Position numbers and translations under genes: made by a program. A stretch of DNA of 64,000 nt from Synergistota bacterium (GTDB lineage: Bacteria > Synergistota > GBS-1): positions 7,370-71,369 of the forward strand of contig JAGHDO010000033.1 in assembly GCA_021159885.1 (NCBI GenBank). Reading direction: 5' to 3'. The notes below the pieces were generated by a model. The model searched no databases, had not been told where the DNA came from, and worked only from the letters and a program-made list of their open reading frames with translations. Below are positions 27,612-64,000 of the stretch, one piece after another; positions within the stretch are counted from its first letter, which is position 1, and each line of letters starts with the position of its first letter.

Positions 27612-27971
27612 ATATGGGGCGGAAGCAACCCGTAAGCCGAGTTCTGTTTATAGGTAGCCATCTATCTGGGGAGCGGATTGCTCCACTCCTCAAGCGACCT
27701 ACCCGAGGGAGAGGCGAGCAACCCCTTATCCCTCCTATTTGGTCTTGCTCCGGATGGGGTTTGCCAAGCCTATCAGGTCGCCCTGATAGCTGGTGGGCTC
27801 TTACCCCACCTTTTCACCCTTACCCCGCTTCTCAGCGAGGCGGTCCGTTTTCTGTGGCACTTTCCTTGGGGTCACCCCCACTGGGTGTTACCCAGCATCC
27901 CGCTCTGTGGAGCTCGGACTTTCCTCAGGGGAGTGAGGTCTCCCCCGCGGCTACCCAGTTGCTTCCACCCC
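27612..27971 (-). ncRNA. rnpB: RNase P RNA, bacterial type A (M1 RNA)
   Basis: The minus-strand reads GGGGUGGAAGCAACUGGGUAGCC...GAGGAAAGUCCGAGCUCCACAGAGC...AGGGUGAAAAGGUGGGGUAAGAGCCCACCAG...AUCCGGAGCAAGACCAAAUAGG...ACAGAACUCGGCUUACGGGUUGCUUCCGCCCC. P4 and the other universally conserved blocks are present. The P1 helix forms between the two ends, and a U7 run follows the 3' end. Confidence 0.92.
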
Positions 27972-34654: not shown

Positions 34655-34830
34655 CTAAAAACCCCGCGGTGCCGCATGCCCGAGGTTTTGAACCCAGCCC
34701 CATCATGGTGGGTGCCCCCTCCATCGCTTCCGCGCCGGAACGCTTCCACGATGGAAGCAGAGCTCCCTTTGGTTCTGGTGTTGGCTCAAAACCCTCAAGC
34801 TTTACACACGCACACCGCAGGGATAATCTT
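34655..34830 (-). ncRNA. Unassigned GC-rich structured RNA candidate (~175 nt) in the bioY-rarA intergenic region. Possibly a 6S-like or other sRNA, or a long structured leader/terminator. The strand call is tentative.
   Basis: Sharp GC-rich island between AT-rich flanks. The two ends are complementary over ~35 nt (CCCGCGGUG...GAGGUUUUGAACC with GGCUCAAAACCCUC...CACCGCAGGG). Internal hairpins include UUCCG-CGC-CGGAA and GCUUCC-ACGAU-GGAAGC. The minus-strand version ends in GGCACCGCGGGGUUUUUAGUUU. Confidence 0.4.
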
Positions 34831-56015: not shown

Positions 56016-57073
56016 CGCAACATCCCCTCCACAGCGTTATCTACCTCCCTGAGGTATTTAGCGGCTTCCTCGGGAGAAGTGGGATTTATGTAAAACCCAG
56101 TTCCCCACTCAAAGCCAGCCATTATAGTTAAACGGGGGACAAGCTCTATATGCCAGTGAAAATCCTCTCTTATAGTTCCCCAATAGTCGGGCTTACCCAG
56201 ACGGGGATGAAGCGAGGGAGCGGTGTGAATAACGAGATTATAAGGCGGATCATTCAAAGCCAGTTTAATCCTTAATAGCATGTCTTTAACAGCAAGAGCA
56301 AGATCTGGAAGTTCCTCATCGGGAATTTCAGCAAAGTCATAGCTATGTTTGATGGGGTAAAGCCTACACTCAAATGGAAAGCATGAAGCAAAAGGCGTAA
56401 ATAGAACGTAATTCTTACGAACCTTTACTATCCTTTCTCCAAATCTCATCTCATCTCGAAGGATATCACAGAAAATACAGCGTTCCTTTCTGGAAAAGTG
56501 CGCACGCGCAACGCTCAACTCCTCCTTCACTACCTTAGGAGTAATAGGCGTAGCTATTATCTGGCTATGCGGATGAGAAAGTGAAGCACCCGCTATGCTC
56601 CTATAGTTCCTGAAAATTAAAACATATCGAAATCTCTCATCGGCTCTTAGCGCTCTTAACCTAAGTTTATACACGCTTAAAACCTTTACTATCTGTTCCA
56701 ACGGGAGATCTCCCAAGCCCTTACCATGCTCCGGAGACTCTATAATGACCTCATGTGCTCCCACACCGCTCATACGATCATATAACCCAATGCCCTCTCT
56801 CTCTATCTTACCCTCAAGCTTAAGAGCAGGATATTTATTGGGTATAACCCTAACGCTCCACCCGGGTTTATTGGGCTCCGTACCTTCCTCGCGAATGGCA
56901 AAGATCTCCGGGGGAGTTTTATCCTCATTCCCAGGGCAGAAGGGACATTCCCCTTCTTCCTTCTTTTCCTCAGAGAGAACCGAAAAATCATGCGGTCGCT
57001 TTGCCCTCTCAGTGGATATAATAACCCACGTGCCCTTTAACGGATCATGCCTGAGCTCCGGCAAATTAACCAC
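56012..57073 (-). CDS. galT: Galactose-1-phosphate uridylyltransferase-family (HIT-like) nucleotidyltransferase
   Basis: CPFCPGNE zinc motif and SHPHSQI (HxHxQ) active site. Confidence 0.75.
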   Translation of the reverse strand: MVNLPELRHDPLKGTWVIISTERAKRPHDFSVLSEEKKEEGECPFCPGNEDKTPPEIFAIREEGTEPNKPGWSVRVIPNKYPALKLEGKIEREGIGLYDRMSGVGAHEVIIESPEHGKGLGDLPLEQIVKVLSVYKLRLRALRADERFRYVLIFRNYRSIAGASLSHPHSQIIATPITPKVVKEELSVARAHFSRKERCIFCDILRDEMRFGERIVKVRKNYVLFTPFASCFPFECRLYPIKHSYDFAEIPDEELPDLALAVKDMLLRIKLALNDPPYNLVIHTAPSLHPRLGKPDYWGTIREDFHWHIELVPRLTIMAGFEWGTGFYINPTSPEEAAKYLREVDNAVEGMLR

Positions 57074-57152
57074 CCCTTTTAAAATATTAACATATATGCT
57101 ATCATCAGAAAAGCCTTATCACCAAAAAGAAAATACAAAGGGGAGAAAAAAA

Positions 57153-58871
57153 ATGAAAGGTGCAAGAGTACTTTTAGAGATGCTAAAAAGATATGATGTA
57201 AAACACATTTTTGGTCTACCGGGTGAGACAACGATACCTCTGTATGTTGAATGGAGTAAATTCCCTGAGATAAAGCATGTTCTCACGAGAGATGAAAGAA
57301 GCGCATCCTTTATGGCAGATGCTTATGCCAAAGTAAGCCTTAAGCCAGGAATATGCGAATCTCCAAGCGTTGGAGCTACACATGTAGTTCCAGGAATAGC
57401 TGAAGCTTATAAATCATCCGTGCCGCTAATAGTATTCACGACCGATGTACCCCTGCATCTCGAGAAGAAAAACATGCTAACGGGCTTTGAGCAAACTCCT
57501 CTTTTCACCTCCATAACCAAGGAAAGCTTAACTATATTAAAAGCATCAGAAATTCCATTTATTCTAAGACGAGCATTCAGAATGGCAACGACTGGCAGGC
57601 CGGGACCCGTGCATATAAGGGTTCCACAGAACGTGCTGGAAGAAGAGATAACATCAGCAGATCTGAGAGTTCAAAAGGAGTTTTCAAAGTATCCTGGGCA
57701 TCGCCCAATAGCGGATAAAGGGGAAATTAAGAAGGCCGTTAAGCTATTGCTTAAAAGCGAAAAACCATTAATTATATGCGGTCAGGGAGTCTTATACTCC
57801 CAAGCTTGGGAGGAAATAAAGGAGCTCGCGGAGCTCCTTGCAATACCTGTGGGAACTACCATTTCAGGAAAGGGAAGCTTCCCTGAAAGACATCCCCTAT
57901 CAATAGGTGTGATAGGAATCAGAGGAGGCACTATCGTATCAAATAAAGTGGTAGAAGAATCGGATCTCATCTTCTATGTCGGATGCAATACCGATTACGT
58001 CACAACAGATGGATGGAAACTACCATCAGCAGATTCTGATAAGGCGATAATTCACCTGGATATAAGCGAAGCAGAGGTCTCCAATAACTATATCACAACA
58101 TCCGTTCTTATCGGAGATGCCAAAGCAACACTGAAAGAAATGATAAAAGTAATTAAGGATGAAATATCTCAACAAATAGATTTCCTAAATTCACCAAGGA
58201 TAAAGGCTTTAAATAAGAGCCTCAATGAATATAGAGAAGCACTGAGAGAAGGAAAAAGTCATTCCAAGATGTGTCCATTAGAAGTTATAGAAACGCTAAA
58301 TGAACTTCTCTCAGAAAGGGAATACATATTAGCAATAGATCCTGGTATAAGCGCCATCTACACATCCGCATTTTTTAAAGCGGATAAACCTGGTAGAAGA
58401 TTTCTCTTCAATTTCTCCCTTGGAGCCTTAGGATATGCCATACCAGCATCTATAGGAGCACATTATGCAAACCCAGAAATTCCAATAATAGCACTAACCG
58501 GGGATGGAAGCTTTGGTTTTACAGCCGGAGAGCTTGAAACCATAGCGAGAACCGAGGGAAATATAAAAATAATCCTGTTTAACAACGATAGTTTCGGCTG
58601 GATAAGGGCAACGATAAAGCTCCTCCAAAATGCCTCTCCCTTTGCCACCGACTTTAAAAAGGTAGATCACGCAAAAGTAGCTGAGGGTTTTGGTTTAAGA
58701 TCGTATAAAATCGAGAAAATCAACGATTTAAGAATACTACTTAAAGAAGAACTCACAAGAAATAGCCCAAGTTTCATAGAGCTTAATGTTGATCCTGAAG
58801 ACGAGCTTATTCCACCGGTTCCCTCATGGTTAAAAATAGCCAAAGAGAAGAAACTGGCACACATAGGATAA
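57153..58871 (+). CDS. Thiamine-pyrophosphate-dependent enzyme, acetolactate-synthase large-subunit family. The track ORF from 56745 is an artefactual 5' extension.
   Basis: Starts MKGARVLLEMLKRYDVKHIFGLPGETTIPL after an AAAGGGGAG RBS. TPP-binding GDG...NN motif present (LTGDGSFGF...LFNNDSFGW). Confidence 0.8.
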   Translation: MKGARVLLEMLKRYDVKHIFGLPGETTIPLYVEWSKFPEIKHVLTRDERSASFMADAYAKVSLKPGICESPSVGATHVVPGIAEAYKSSVPLIVFTTDVPLHLEKKNMLTGFEQTPLFTSITKESLTILKASEIPFILRRAFRMATTGRPGPVHIRVPQNVLEEEITSADLRVQKEFSKYPGHRPIADKGEIKKAVKLLLKSEKPLIICGQGVLYSQAWEEIKELAELLAIPVGTTISGKGSFPERHPLSIGVIGIRGGTIVSNKVVEESDLIFYVGCNTDYVTTDGWKLPSADSDKAIIHLDISEAEVSNNYITTSVLIGDAKATLKEMIKVIKDEISQQIDFLNSPRIKALNKSLNEYREALREGKSHSKMCPLEVIETLNELLSEREYILAIDPGISAIYTSAFFKADKPGRRFLFNFSLGALGYAIPASIGAHYANPEIPIIALTGDGSFGFTAGELETIARTEGNIKIILFNNDSFGWIRATIKLLQNASPFATDFKKVDHAKVAEGFGLRSYKIEKINDLRILLKEELTRNSPSFIELNVDPEDELIPPVPSWLKIAKEKKLAHIG

Positions 58872-58895: not shown

Positions 58896-60026
58896 ATGAG
58901 GAACATAATCACTCTAACCATCACCATAATACTCTTAGTTTGCACAGTATTTTCTTGGTACTTTCTTCTTCCTCTTTACCTTAAAAGCTTAGGCGCTTCA
59001 GATAAGGCCATAAGCGTACTTTATTTTCTCTTTAACCTCGCCTTCTACATAGGTCAAATTCCTGGGGGCTTCCTCACAGACAGGATAGGAAGAAAGCCCA
59101 TAGTCGTGGGAACCACCTTGTTATACGCATTAGCCGGATACGGGATGGCTTTCTCCTCAAGCTGGATCGGCGTTTCGATCTTTTACATAATAAATGCGCT
59201 CTCAAGTTCCATTCAAATGCCAGCCATCTTAGCCCTCGTCTTCGAATCGCAGGAAAAGAAGGGAACATCCTTTGGCATGACAAGCTTCTCTTTTAACCTT
59301 GGAATAGCAATAGGACCATTTATAGGAGCAATGCTACTCGAAAGAATAGGAATAAAGGGATTATTAACTATCTACTCTATTGCAGCTTTATCGATGGGAG
59401 TAGCACGTTGGATCTTTTTAGAGGAAACCTTAAGAGCGACAGGGCATGAACATGGCTCTCTTAAGGATTTACGGATGAATAGAACGAGGCTACTAACCAT
59501 AATAGGAGGCACTCTCTTCTTTATGAGCTTATCCCTTACCTTAAACGGACCATACATATCCCTTTTTCAGAAGGAAGGTCTCGGTCTATCCGAACCTGAG
59601 ATAAACATCATTTTCTCAAAGGCGGGTATAATATCTGCAATCGGCGTGCTCATATTTGGCAAAATAGCTGATAGAATAGATCCAGCAAAATCGTGGGCAA
59701 TTTCTTCTCTCTTACACCCCTTGCTTCTGCTTGGATGGGCTCTGCTTAAGGGCTGTCTTCCCCTGCTTTTCATCTCTATACTCTTAGCAGAAATATGTTA
59801 TGTGGTTTATCCAATATTCGTCTCAACGATATTCTCAGAAAGCTCAAGAGGAAGGGGACTGGGGATCTTTGGATTTATAACAGGAAGTATAGGTTCCCTC
59901 TCTCCTCTATTGGTAAACGCCTTAAGTGGAATCACGGAATTTTTCACGCCATTTCTCTTAGCCTTAGGTTTTGGGGCGGGGGCTTTTGGGATTATAATAA
60001 AGGTAGGAGGTGAAAGAAGAGCATGA
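58896..60026 (+). CDS. MFS transporter
   Basis: 12-TM profile; DRIGRK motif in loop 2-3. Confidence 0.75.
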   Translation: MRNIITLTITIILLVCTVFSWYFLLPLYLKSLGASDKAISVLYFLFNLAFYIGQIPGGFLTDRIGRKPIVVGTTLLYALAGYGMAFSSSWIGVSIFYIINALSSSIQMPAILALVFESQEKKGTSFGMTSFSFNLGIAIGPFIGAMLLERIGIKGLLTIYSIAALSMGVARWIFLEETLRATGHEHGSLKDLRMNRTRLLTIIGGTLFFMSLSLTLNGPYISLFQKEGLGLSEPEINIIFSKAGIISAIGVLIFGKIADRIDPAKSWAISSLLHPLLLLGWALLKGCLPLLFISILLAEICYVVYPIFVSTIFSESSRGRGLGIFGFITGSIGSLSPLLVNALSGITEFFTPFLLALGFGAGAFGIIIKVGGERRA

Positions 60027-60505
60027 GTAAAAGCAGAAAAATTGCACTCTTTTCAATTTATAGCGCGCTTGTGTGCGTTGCAACATTCATACACGTTCCA
60101 GTTCCAGGATTTAGGATCTACTTTAACCTCGGTGAGGGAGCGATATATACCATAGCCATCCTTTTTGGCGCCTTTGCAGGGGGAATAGCTGGTGGGCTGG
60201 GATCGGCATTAGCAGATCTTCTTTTAGGTTATCCTCTTTGGGCACCGTTTACCCTTATAATCAAGGGGACCGAGGGATTCATCGTTGGAAAGCTGGCACG
60301 CCATAATAAACCTCTTGCCTTAACCATTGGTGCGGCTATAATGATAAGCGGATACGCTATCTCCGCAGGTCTCCTTTACGGATGGGGAGCTGCTCCCGTG
60401 GAAGCGATTACCGATATAACCCAATGCTCGGTTGGGGTTCTCATAGCTGTCCCGCTGGTCAGAGTGCTCCAAAAGAGCGTTATTGAAAAGGTCGAGAAAA
60501 GTTAA
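60023..60505 (+). CDS. Small polytopic membrane protein, ECF-transporter S-component-like (ThiW/QueT-like)
   Basis: 160 aa, ~5 TM helices, Gly-rich helix GGIAGGLGSALADLLLG; translationally coupled to the MFS gene. Confidence 0.4.
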   Translation: MSKSRKIALFSIYSALVCVATFIHVPVPGFRIYFNLGEGAIYTIAILFGAFAGGIAGGLGSALADLLLGYPLWAPFTLIIKGTEGFIVGKLARHNKPLALTIGAAIMISGYAISAGLLYGWGAAPVEAITDITQCSVGVLIAVPLVRVLQKSVIEKVEKS

Positions 60506-62213
60506 GATTCATCTATTAAAACCCCAACAACCTTATGCCCATCAAGATAAGCGGAGAATATTCCCTCATATATCCGGAGAGAGGGATGTTCTCCGCGCTT
60601 ATATTCATGCGAATCAAACCAGGTTCTGTTAAAGATGTTTCCCTCCATACCCACAAATATAGGTAAATATAGTATTCCATCGAGCTCAAGATCAGCAAAA
60701 AAGTGCGTACCATATGAAAGCTCAGGCGTAAAACCCTTTTCCATCACCCCTATCTCAACTATCATGCCACAGTTTGATACCTCGCTGTATTCGACAGGGA
60801 CTCCTTGCCGGGGGTTGGAAGTCCCCCACCTCCCTGGACCTATGAGAATAAACTTCTCACCCTCAAGAGCTTTATTTATCCTCCCTATTTCACGCGCTAC
60901 CTTATGTGGATCGAATTTTTCCACGTACATCCAGGGATCGACGTAAACCAAGTAGCGAACTTTTTCTACCACACCATTAGTCAGCATTCTATTTCCCCGA
61001 AGTATAAGCCTCTCCTCAGGTATATTTTTAGGCACCGTGACCGGCCTATGGGATTCATAGCTCGAAAGAGGACGAAGCTGAACCAGCGCAAAAAAGCTTT
61101 CTACGGGCTCAGATGCAAACTCAACATCAACGGGGATACCCATTTCTTTCTCAAAGAGCTTGAAGAGAAAGCCCATAAGCTCGAAAAACTCCGGATGAGT
61201 GCTTGGGAAACCGTCAAAAGTGAAAATTATCTTGCCCTCCTTATGGGACGAATAGGGTGTTATCATATCCTCCGAATAAATGCTTGCAAGCCTGCTAAAA
61301 TTTCTATGATACTTTATCAAATCCTTCCTCGAGTTTATATTATAGGATTTAAATCCTCCACCCTCGAGATCAAGTAAATCAAAGGTCTCCTGAGAATATC
61401 TCATTATTTCAGTTGGATCATTTCCCTCAGGCCTCAAGCTTAGGTTAGTCAGAGAAAATATACGAGCGTAATTTCTACCCGTACATCTCGTACCTAACCC
61501 AAAGACGACCCTAACCATCCCATCTTCAACCCTAATCCTTTCTGTCCACCTGCGATAATTTCTCGAAAATCCCACTCCAGCTATCTCTGGATAGAACTCA
61601 CCTCCCCGTCTCTTTCCAATCAGCTGTTGAACTATTATCCCCATGCTCTCCCCTTCTAAGGAGTGCTTCTTCCTATATTCGAGAGCTACAGGACCATATG
61701 TGCTTGCGTAAACTTTCTTTATAGCACAGAGAAGCTCCCTTACTCTCTCTTCAAGGTCTCCCCTATTAGACACGAAGAGCGTCAGATATTTTCCCGCAAA
61801 GGAGTACTTTATACTATCCTCAAGAAGCGAGGAAGATCTAACCGCGAGAGGATAATCCATCTCGCAAAGCCATCTTCTCAAATCTTCTATCACTGCTTCA
61901 GGAAAAGAAGCATTTAAAAAGCCTTCTTTATATCCTCCCAGTTACCCGTGAAAATAACATCAGCAAGATCGTTTCCTTCCATAAATTCGTCGAAGATCTC
62001 CGTCGTTATAAACCGGCTCGGAGGTATATAAATGGGCCATGGAGGGATCCCCTCCATCCCCTCAAGAACTCTCTTAGCGAAAATAAGTCCCTTAGCCTTA
62101 CCTCCAACGCTTCCCTCGCCTATCAGATGACTCTTATCCTTAACGAGCTCCTTTGCATTTAAGGATAGATACCTTCGTAGCTTGATATTGCTTAGCAAAC
62201 TATCCCCCCTCAA
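60502..62213 (-). CDS. PEP-utilising-enzyme nucleotide-binding (PPDK_N) domain protein lacking the phospho-His and PEP-binding domains; split into 61914..62213 and 60502..61893 by a frameshift near an A5 run (61916-61920)
   Basis: The upstream piece carries GGKAKGL (GGKGANL-like). The downstream piece carries [26 protein letters not shown] (the VAVRSSATAEDLP..SFAGQ motif). One extra base in the T/A run reads ...[17 protein letters not shown]... continuously. Confidence 0.7.
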
Positions 62214-63580
62214 TTATTAAAGCTGAATATAGGTGGGGGAATTCGCCCTCCTCTTTTTATGAACCTATCTACCTTTCCGATCTTAACTGGAACTATGGGA
62301 GCTTCTCCAAGCAGGCCTCCCCAGCATGCTCTTTCACCAACCCCTTTACCGGGAACAGGTATAAGCCTTACCGCAGTCGTTTTAGAATTTATAACACCTA
62401 TAGCCATCTCATCAGCTATTATACAGGCTATGACTTCCTCAGGCGTATCACCTGGAATAGCTATCATATCAAGTCCTACCGAACACACGCAGGTCATCGC
62501 CTCCAATTTCTCAAGACCTATCGTTCCATCCAAGGCACATTTTGCCATTTCCGAATCCTCACTCACCGGGATAAAGGCCCCGCTTAATCCCCCAACAGAG
62601 GACGAAGCCATAACCCCGCCTTTTTTAACGGCATCGTTTAGAAGGGCCAGAGCAGCTGTAGTTCCCGGAAGACCACATCGCTCAATCCCCATAGCCTCTA
62701 TGATTTGTGCTACGCTATCACCCGGATTTGGCGTAGGAGCCAAGGAGAGATCAACTATACCGAACGATATCCCAAGCCTCCTCGCAACCTCTCTTCCAAG
62801 AAGCTCTCCAGCAGCGGTAATCTTAAAAGCAACCCTCTTAATCTCGTTAGCGAGCGTTCTAAAGTCCACATCTTTTAAGCTCTCAACCACCGCTCTAACC
62901 ACACCAGGACCACTAACTCCAACATTTATGCAGACATCTCCTTCCTGAGCACCGTGAAAGGCTCCCGCCATGAACGGATTATCTGAAGGAGCGTTTGCAA
63001 AAACTACGAACTTAGCCGCTCCTATACCATCCTTAGAAGAGGTAAGAAGCGCGGATCTCTTCATAACGCCAGCAGAAAGAAGAACCGCATCTATGTTTAT
63101 GCCCGCTTTTGTAGAAGCAACGTTCAGGAAGGAACACACCCTTTCGGTCGATGAGAGCACATCTGGTATCACCGATATTAGCTTTCTCTCCCAATCGGTG
63201 ATACCCTTCTCGACCAAGGCTCCATATCCCCCTATAAAATCAACTTCTACTTCCACAGCAGCCCGTTCAAGCGCTTTTCCAAGCTCAAGAAAATCCTCTT
63301 CTTTAAATCCGGCACTTATAAGAGAAACAGGACTAACGGAAATCCTTGAGTTCACTATGGGAATCCCAAATTCATCCTCAACCTCTCTTACCGTTGGAAC
63401 GAGCCTTCTTGAAACCCTGACTATCTTCTCATATACTTTGTCTATAACCTCCTCAGGATCGCCTCCCCTACAGTCCAATAAGGATATTCCAAGCGTGATA
63501 GTCCTTATATCAAGATTTTCTCTTCTCACCATCTGAATGGTTTCCATTATCTCGTTTAAAGATACGAATCCTCTCTTCAT
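62210..63580 (-). CDS. UPF0210/DUF711-family protein
   Basis: 456 aa with family-like Gly-rich blocks ([28 protein letters not shown]); paired with an upstream ACT protein. Confidence 0.65.
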
Positions 63581-63589
63581 GGTATCACC

Positions 63590-63862
63590 TCATACTCTGT
63601 GCATAGCTTTGAATATTTCCTCACGCTGAAGCCATATCTCGACTCCAAGCTCCTTCCCTCGCTTGAGGAGCGCATCTTTAAACTCCGAGAAACCGCTCTT
63701 AAGCTGAGAAATATTAACGATCATAGCCATAACAAATATTCCCTGCATGGTAGTCTGGCTTATATCCTCGATATTAACGTTATACTCCGCGAGTAATCCA
63801 GAAATACCCGCAACAATACCAACCTTATCCACACCTATAACCGTTATAACCGCCCTTGACAA
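63590..63862 (-). CDS. ACT-domain protein, UPF0237 family
   Basis: 90 aa; AVITVIGVDKVGIVAGISGLLAEYNVNIEDISQT is an ACT beta-alpha-beta-beta-alpha-beta core. Confidence 0.7.
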   Translation of the reverse strand: MSRAVITVIGVDKVGIVAGISGLLAEYNVNIEDISQTTMQGIFVMAMIVNISQLKSGFSEFKDALLKRGKELGVEIWLQREEIFKAMHRV

Positions 63863-63886
63863 GATAAAAGACCTCCCCTTTAAAGA

Positions 63887-64000
63887 AGATGCAGTCCCTT
63901 TATAATCTGAGAAGCTCTCTCAAAACTCTCCTCTAAGTCCACCTCGAGGAGAGCTATCTTGGCACCCCTATGTCCATATCTCGCTGAAAACAGCGATATA
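63887..64000 (-). CDS. 3' end of an unidentified gene continuing beyond the window (...YGHRGAKIALLEVDLEESFERASQIIKGLHLL*)
   Basis: Open minus-strand frame to the window edge with a stop at ~63887; not in the track because it is edge-truncated. Confidence 0.35.

Follow-up and report, generated by a model that had tools for sequence, protein, structure and literature searches.

The 64,000-nucleotide stretch analyzed here (the window) comes from a metagenome-assembled genome (MAG) of Synergistota (assembly GCA_021159885.1, contig JAGHDO010000033.1, positions 7,370 to 71,369), and close to its right-hand end two genes on the minus strand form a compact pair. The first, glyXS (63590..63862), is an open reading frame (ORF) of 90 amino acids that starts with TTG, encodes a single ACT domain and matches ACT_6 and NF001220; a Shine-Dalgarno sequence, AGGGGAGG, lies 9 nt upstream of this start. 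The second, glyXL (62210..63580), is a DUF711/UPF0210 ORF of 456 amino acids that starts with ATG and matches PF05167 and NF003700. The two are separated by a spacer of 9 nt (63581..63589, minus strand), in which the ribosome-binding site of glyXL can be read from the sequence as GAGGTG, and the same 9-nt spacing is found in two relatives, L001 and L004. Both ORFs are thus present as described in the initial annotation, made from the DNA sequence alone, which had placed a 90-residue ACT protein immediately upstream of a 456-residue UPF0210 protein on the same strand (62210-63862).

The family membership proposed there was borne out by profile searches. The 90-residue protein matched ACT_6 (PF13740) with an E-value of 2.9e-14, and also ACT (PF01842), in Pfam; it scored 116.3 bits (cut-off 74) against NCBIfam NF001220/PRK00194, spanning profile positions 1-90 of 90, and it aligned with the Protein Data Bank (PDB) entry 1ZPV, the ACT protein SP_0238 of Streptococcus pneumoniae, at an E-value of 3e-16. 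The 456-residue protein had DUF711 (PF05167) as its sole Pfam match, with an E-value of 5e-180 and 599 bits (cut-off 25) over profile positions 1-412 of 413; it scored 692 bits (cut-off 440) against NF003700/PRK05313, over positions 3-452 of 452, and matched PDB 2HA9 (‘UPF0210 protein SP0239’ of S. pneumoniae) at an E-value of 5.9e-149. These profile and structure match scores are far above chance, and the two proteins of known structure, SP_0238 and SP_0239, are encoded by adjoining genes in S. pneumoniae. Orthology was judged by the rule of Price et al. (‘GapMind 2026’, bioRxiv 10.1101/2024.10.14.618325), which sets the threshold for orthologues at 30% of the maximum bit score. Relative to its self-score of 980 bits, GlyXL reached 51% against SP0239 (499.9 bits with 2HA9), and GlyXS reached 35% of its self-score of 180.8 bits (62.6 bits with 1ZPV). 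On these comparisons the pair is best described as ordinary GlyXS and GlyXL orthologues in a Synergistota MAG, i.e., an already known system in a new host phylum.

The initial annotation regarded the function of this gene pair as still undefined, a view that is now outdated, as GlyXS and GlyXL have been linked genetically to glycine biosynthesis. Literature searches under DUF711, UPF0210, UPF0237 and ‘PFL family protein’ returned only incidental mentions in proteomics studies and a review of ribonucleotide reductase (RNR) evolution, which places DUF711 in the ten-stranded barrel superfamily together with RNRs and glycyl-radical enzymes. It is Price et al. who name the ACT gene GlyXS and the DUF711 gene GlyXL, and who describe a route to glycine that is independent of glyA and its product serine hydroxymethyltransferase (SHMT). 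In random-barcode transposon sequencing (RB-TnSeq) of Bifidobacterium breve and Methanococcus maripaludis, both of which lack glyA, the two genes were needed specifically when glycine was absent, and glyXS-glyXL of B. breve rescued an Escherichia coli glyA::kan strain aerobically (Price et al.). As relayed in the same preprint, the glycine auxotrophy of S. pneumoniae D39 is due to a truncated glyXL (Kazmierczak, 2009), and a glycine riboswitch precedes the glyXS-glyXL operon of Bacillus methanolicus (Price et al.; confirmed in Irla et al., 2015). The product proposed by Price et al. is glyoxylate, from which a transaminase would form glycine.

Compared with the pairs for which there is an experimental or structural record, i.e., those of B. 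breve (BBR_RS12915/12920), M. maripaludis (MMP_RS03450/07345) and S. pneumoniae (SP_0238/SP_0239), the proteins of the window belong to the same Pfam and NCBIfam families. The ACT gene comes first and is followed by a short spacer, the proteins have 90 and about 455 residues, and the proposed pocket residues are identical. The differences are the Synergistota host, the absence of a leader or riboswitch, the apparent position of the pair at the end of a longer operon, and a possibly decaying PPDK_N gene downstream; nothing in these differences indicates a different function. We consider it likely that the pair in the window is orthologous to glyXS and glyXL and gives its host a supply of glycine that does not depend on SHMT, by way of the proposed glyoxylate. 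The pair appears to encode a glycine route independent of both SHMT and folate, and the names glyXS and glyXL are preferable to ‘ACT domain-containing protein’ and ‘PFL family protein’, the latter of which wrongly implies a glycyl-radical enzyme.

The wide recurrence of the pairing, which the initial annotation had also put forward, was confirmed by counting. A scan for DUF711 with one genome per species gave at least 595 confirmed loci, of which the best 80 were taken for neighborhood work; this set covers Bacillota, Gastranaerophilales (Melainabacteria), Spirochaetes, Prevotellaceae (Bacteroidota), Victivallaceae, Coriobacteriia, Methanosarcinales and Methanomassiliicoccales. In 71 of the 79 loci that could be tested, DUF711 is directly preceded on the same strand by an ACT homologue, and Price et al. 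report that the pair co-occurs in 885 genera and is adjacent in 815 of them. The ACT ORFs upstream of DUF711 in 74 other loci are 34-96% identical to GlyXS of the window (median 46%). GlyXL is exceptionally conserved: among 83 aligned bacterial and archaeal sequences, 110 of the 456 positions do not vary, and any two sequences share 56-99% identity (median 66.5%). GlyXL of the window is 56-64% identical to its clostridial and archaeal counterparts. When a library clustered at 50% identity was searched, a single full-length representative scored above 420 bits, at 56% identity to GlyXL of the window, which therefore lies in or close to the core of the family; a modest number of divergent full-length GlyXL subfamilies in the same library showed 31-49% identity. 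Few two-gene units of anaerobes and archaea are as widespread or as conserved as this pair.

The loci without a directly upstream ACT gene are mainly those of Gastranaerophilales. No ACT gene was found within 6 kb of DUF711 in six loci of Gastranaerophilales type (L006, L014, L017, L022, L048 and L064) and in L079, and GlyXS may be encoded elsewhere in such genomes, as it is in M. maripaludis. In five of these loci (L014, L017, L022, L048 and L064) an OmpA-like ORF of about 230 residues overlaps the start of DUF711, and a small unassigned ORF with a median length of 144 residues lies directly downstream of DUF711 in five loci, L022 included.

Neighborhood conservation, which had been suggested as a check, did not extend beyond the ACT-DUF711 pair itself. 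No third conserved partner, be it a transaminase, an activase or a PPDK_N protein, emerged from all-against-all clustering of the neighbors within 5 kb, and none emerged from a Pfam census of the immediate upstream and downstream genes in 78 loci. The largest cluster other than the pair, present upstream in 26 of 78 loci, is that of a metallo-β-lactamase (MBL)-fold hydrolase; no family of downstream neighbors exceeds 5 of 78. In genomes of Lachnospiraceae type, this MBL-fold metallo-hydrolase (265 residues, e.g., L055 4804-5601) directly precedes glyXS on the same strand and is itself preceded by polA and coaE, a synteny typical of one clostridial group; its position next to the pair is probably a matter of lineage synteny. 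Across lineages, the gene upstream of the pair is often a metal-dependent or haloacid dehalogenase (HAD) hydrolase (MBL 26, Metallophos 2, HAD 2).

We further analyzed the residues of GlyXL that are proposed to line its pocket. Price et al. propose R22, R75, R403 and E339 in B. breve numbering; by a mapping inferred through the alignment with 2HA9, with a consistent shift of +4 for the N-terminal residues and +2 for the C-terminal ones, these correspond to R26, R79, R405 and E341 of the window protein, all of which are invariant in 83 of 83 GlyXL sequences. When 16 representatives of the divergent subfamilies (31-56% identity) were inspected, R26, R79 and E341 were each present in 15 of 16, and R405, D277, S289, D342, D371 and D390 in 16 of 16. 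A charged and polar core (R26, R79, D277, S289, E341, D342, D371, D390 and R405) is kept even at 31-45% identity, and its retention in divergent subfamilies defines it as the probable catalytic core. Two cysteines, C37 and C366, never vary within the core family but do vary in the divergent subfamilies. The conserved, positively charged pocket formed by R26, R79 and R405 together with E341/D342 most likely binds a small carboxylate.

Taken together with the published genetics, these features can be arranged into a working model. GlyXS and GlyXL would act as a two-protein system that provides a route to glycine without SHMT. GlyXL, taken as the catalytic subunit and described in the literature as a non-radical, oxygen-tolerant enzyme, is built on a ten-stranded barrel of the type found in RNRs and glycyl-radical enzymes; its arginine-lined pocket would take a small anionic substrate or product, with glyoxylate being released, and a separate aminotransferase would convert glyoxylate to glycine, as has been proposed. 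GlyXS would serve as an obligatory ACT small subunit that activates or stabilizes GlyXL, and it may in addition mediate feedback by an amino acid, plausibly glycine. In this organism the pair, which has no leader of its own, appears to form the last part of a longer transcript and to follow a Metallophos gene in it.

The initial annotation had taken the ACT partner to imply regulation by an amino acid. That suggestion is plausible and is incomplete, since the ACT gene itself is required in the published fitness data; GlyXS therefore behaves as an obligatory small subunit and not merely as an inhibitor. A functional analogy is offered by acetohydroxyacid synthase (IlvB/IlvN, IlvI/IlvH, IlvG/IlvM), in which the gene for a biosynthetic catalytic subunit likewise adjoins that of a small ACT protein. 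There, the ACT subunit is needed for full activity and confers amino acid feedback, properties that are extended to GlyXS by analogy only; the catalytic folds are unrelated, acetohydroxyacid synthase being a thiamine diphosphate (ThDP) enzyme and GlyXL a ten-stranded barrel. A second point of comparison is GcvR, a repressor of the glycine cleavage operon that responds to glycine and carries the same ACT_6-type domain as GlyXS. GcvR contains two ACT_6 domains, whereas GlyXS contains one and, unlike GcvR, is not linked to GcvA. The GcvR model NF008612 is the best NCBIfam match of GlyXS outside its own family, although the match is weak, at 23.7 bits against a cut-off of 267 (E-value 2.7e-5). It might be read as a weak hint that ACT proteins of the GlyXS type sense glycine.

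The genetics tie the pair to glycine supply only; the case for glyoxylate comes from a further gene with a fitness phenotype and from a docking-type prediction. GlyXL-GlyXS might then make glycine directly from another precursor, with the transaminase phenotype of B. breve being indirect. In line with this alternative, no aminotransferase is a conserved neighbor in the 78 loci, Aminotran_1_2 being found in 2 of the 78 downstream neighbors. The composition of the pocket speaks for glyoxylate instead: three arginines against a single Glu/Asp pair, all of them invariant, would suit an anionic oxo-acid better than a zwitterion. Furthermore, the co-folding estimate of Price et al. is 17 µM for glyoxylate and 822 µM for glycine, in favor of the former, and glyoxylate transaminase activity is present in E. 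coli, the host of the rescue experiment (Price et al.). We therefore regard direct formation of glycine as unlikely, and retain the route through glyoxylate as the preferred reading.

The genomic setting of the pair was read largely from the contigs of relatives, in which DUF711 is 94% (L001-L003) or 80% (L004) identical to that of the window. Upstream of glyXS, the window holds the 3′ end of a Metallophos (calcineurin-like phosphoesterase) gene that is cut by the window edge (63880..64000, minus strand), and in both L001 and L004 a complete Metallophos gene of 284 residues lies directly upstream of glyXS. Its stop codon is 17 nt before the start of glyXS in the window, and the pair is therefore without a leader of its own here; the Metallophos gene is probably co-transcribed with it. 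In the relatives this gene is part of a conserved, packed operon ahead of glyXS (L001 1898-9702, L004 1891-9703) that, except for 63880-64000, lies outside the window. The order, all on the same strand, is a sigma-54-type regulator, DUF4416, purB, two HGD-D/DUF2229 genes, a BcrAD_BadFG activase, Metallophos, ACT and DUF711. The regulator gene ends 45 nt before DUF4416, and from DUF4416 on the gaps are at most 21 nt or the genes overlap. The identification of purB rests on TIGR00928 (482 bits) and that of the activase, an ATP-dependent one, on TIGR00241, and the HGD-D/DUF2229 genes are 2-hydroxyacyl-CoA-dehydratase-like. No match to the sigma-54 promoter consensus was found in L001. A scan of 60000-64000 for sigma-70 promoters and terminators gave no promoter-like site just upstream of glyXS, none in the spacer, and no terminator-like site on the minus strand; the overall counts of such sites in this region were within about 1.2 standard deviations of the means for shuffled sequence. 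Rfam likewise gave no element ahead of the pair in the window.

Several observations weigh against a role in glycine supply by way of glyoxylate. The experimental record is confined to B. breve, M. maripaludis and S. pneumoniae, with Synergistota lying outside it, and glyoxylate as the product rests on one transaminase fitness phenotype together with the co-folding prediction. The operon with purB, 2-hydroxyacyl-CoA-dehydratase-like genes, an activase and a phosphoesterase suggests nothing about glycine. Neither a glycine riboswitch nor another glycine-linked element was found with the pair, be it in the window or in those 12 related loci whose upstream gaps are longest. The Rfam model RF00504 had no match at E ≤ 10 in 63500-64000, nor anywhere else in the window; a crude scan of all loci for the glycine-riboswitch motif had no match beside the pair; and at the Rfam gathering threshold the 12 loci showed no glycine riboswitch near the pair, the only elements in them being unrelated ones (T-box, purine and lysine) that lie on the other strand or at a distance from the pair. 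Neither the neighbor clustering nor the Pfam censuses showed a gene of glycine, serine or glyoxylate metabolism as a conserved neighbor. In addition, a six-frame translation of the window contained no SHMT (GlyA) signature, a result that over 64 kb is uninformative for the genome. With no riboswitch and no such neighbor, it is orthology, and not local context, that supports the assignment.

Because the pair closes a tightly packed run of genes in L001 and L004, in an arrangement kept at 94% and at 80% GlyXL identity, and because the same Metallophos 3′ end precedes it by 17 nt in the window, it might instead serve, in this lineage of amino acid-fermenting Synergistota, a catabolic or salvage role together with its operon partners (the HGD-like dehydratase, activase, purB, Metallophos and PPDK_N), in place of one in glycine supply. 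This context is confined to the lineage, however: across 80 other genomes the pair forms no cluster with any of these genes. PPDK_N in particular is dispensable, being frameshifted in the window and absent from L001, and GlyXL sits within the tight core of its family, sharing 56-64% identity with members from clostridia and archaea and keeping all conserved residues intact. From this core placement and the intact residues, a change of function is not indicated, and we find a role tied to the operon partners improbable. Should the lineage operon nevertheless be a functional unit, it could supply the precursor of GlyXL; or GlyXL could run in a different, possibly catabolic, way in amino acid fermenters. 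We give either version only a slim chance, and glycine supply by orthologues of GlyXS and GlyXL stays the preferred explanation.

A separate question is raised by the NCBI product name ‘PFL family protein’, which is attached to a database protein 100% identical to GlyXL of the window and is misleading. GlyXL has the ten-stranded barrel fold of SP0239, a type of fold that it shares with glycyl-radical enzymes. Relative to class III RNR (NrdD) and glycyl-radical enzymes such as PFL, CutC and HypD, GlyXL is about half the size and shares 5-12% identity with them, and unlike these it has no glycyl-radical motif, has no activase and is active in air. The C-terminal glycyl-radical fingerprint (R[IVT][CSA]G[YWF] or RVxG[FWY]) was absent from all 52 aligned homologues and from all 86 DUF711 ORFs, and GlyXL matched no Gly_radical or PFL-like Pfam domain at E ≤ 0.01. 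No radical S-adenosylmethionine (radical-SAM) gene adjoins the pair in the window, L001 or L004, nor does one appear in the list of the 25 commonest families of immediate neighbors in 78 loci. Glycyl-radical identity was rejected on this motif, Pfam and neighborhood evidence; with neither fingerprint, domain nor adjacent activase, GlyXL is related to the glycyl-radical enzymes by its fold without being one of them. That GlyXL should be such an enzyme after all, in need of a radical-SAM activase and confined to anaerobic conditions as its NCBI name would have it, is very improbable, given also that the RNR catalytic residues are not conserved in it (Price et al.) and that the working of the B. 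breve pair in E. coli under aerobic conditions argues strongly against it.

Downstream of glyXL lies the PPDK_N-domain gene (60502..62213, minus strand), which overlaps the DUF711 stop by 4 nt. In the window it is frameshifted into ORFs of 99 and 463 residues, both of which match PPDK_N. A tblastn search of the window with the intact 567-residue orthologue of L004 placed the switch of frame at about 61917-61929, and DNA alignment showed that the A5 run at 61916-61920 is one base short; the coding strand reads T5 at this point, and T6 would restore the frame. The frameshift is either an assembly error or a sign of gene decay. The protein consists of an N-terminal ATP-grasp (PPDK_N) region and a C-terminal half without an assignment. 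While the gene is intact in L004, it is absent from L001-L003, where 88 nt separate DUF711 from a convergent gene for an energy-coupling factor (ECF) S-component. Across 80 other genomes, the 6 kb around DUF711 contained no PPDK_N homologue, and PPDK_N is the immediate downstream neighbor in 1 of 78 loci.

The initial annotation had seen in the adjacency of this gene to the pair a hint of a metabolic module. The adjacency is real; the module is not supported, because of the frameshift, the absence of the gene from relatives with 94% identical DUF711, and an adjacency limited to 1 of 78 loci. PPDK_N is a variable passenger gene of the lineage and may be decaying. What this copy of the pair adds is thus a new host phylum and one negative result, namely that PPDK_N lies outside the GlyXS/GlyXL system.

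Three further features of the window were noted. On the plus strand, 57153-58871 encodes a ThDP enzyme of the acetolactate synthase type with 572 residues, listed as an over-long ORF at 56745-58871. It falls below every NCBIfam cut-off, with a best score of 396 bits against a cut-off of 866 and 258 against 791 for glyoxylate carboligase, and the gene is syntenic in L001 and L004, where it lies beside a major facilitator superfamily (MFS) transporter gene and an ECF S-component gene. The other two, both on the minus strand, are ordinary housekeeping RNAs: a class A RNase P RNA of bacterial type at 27617-27966 (338 bits) and a 6S RNA at 34657-34826 (78 bits), and their presence indicates that the window is bacterial DNA.

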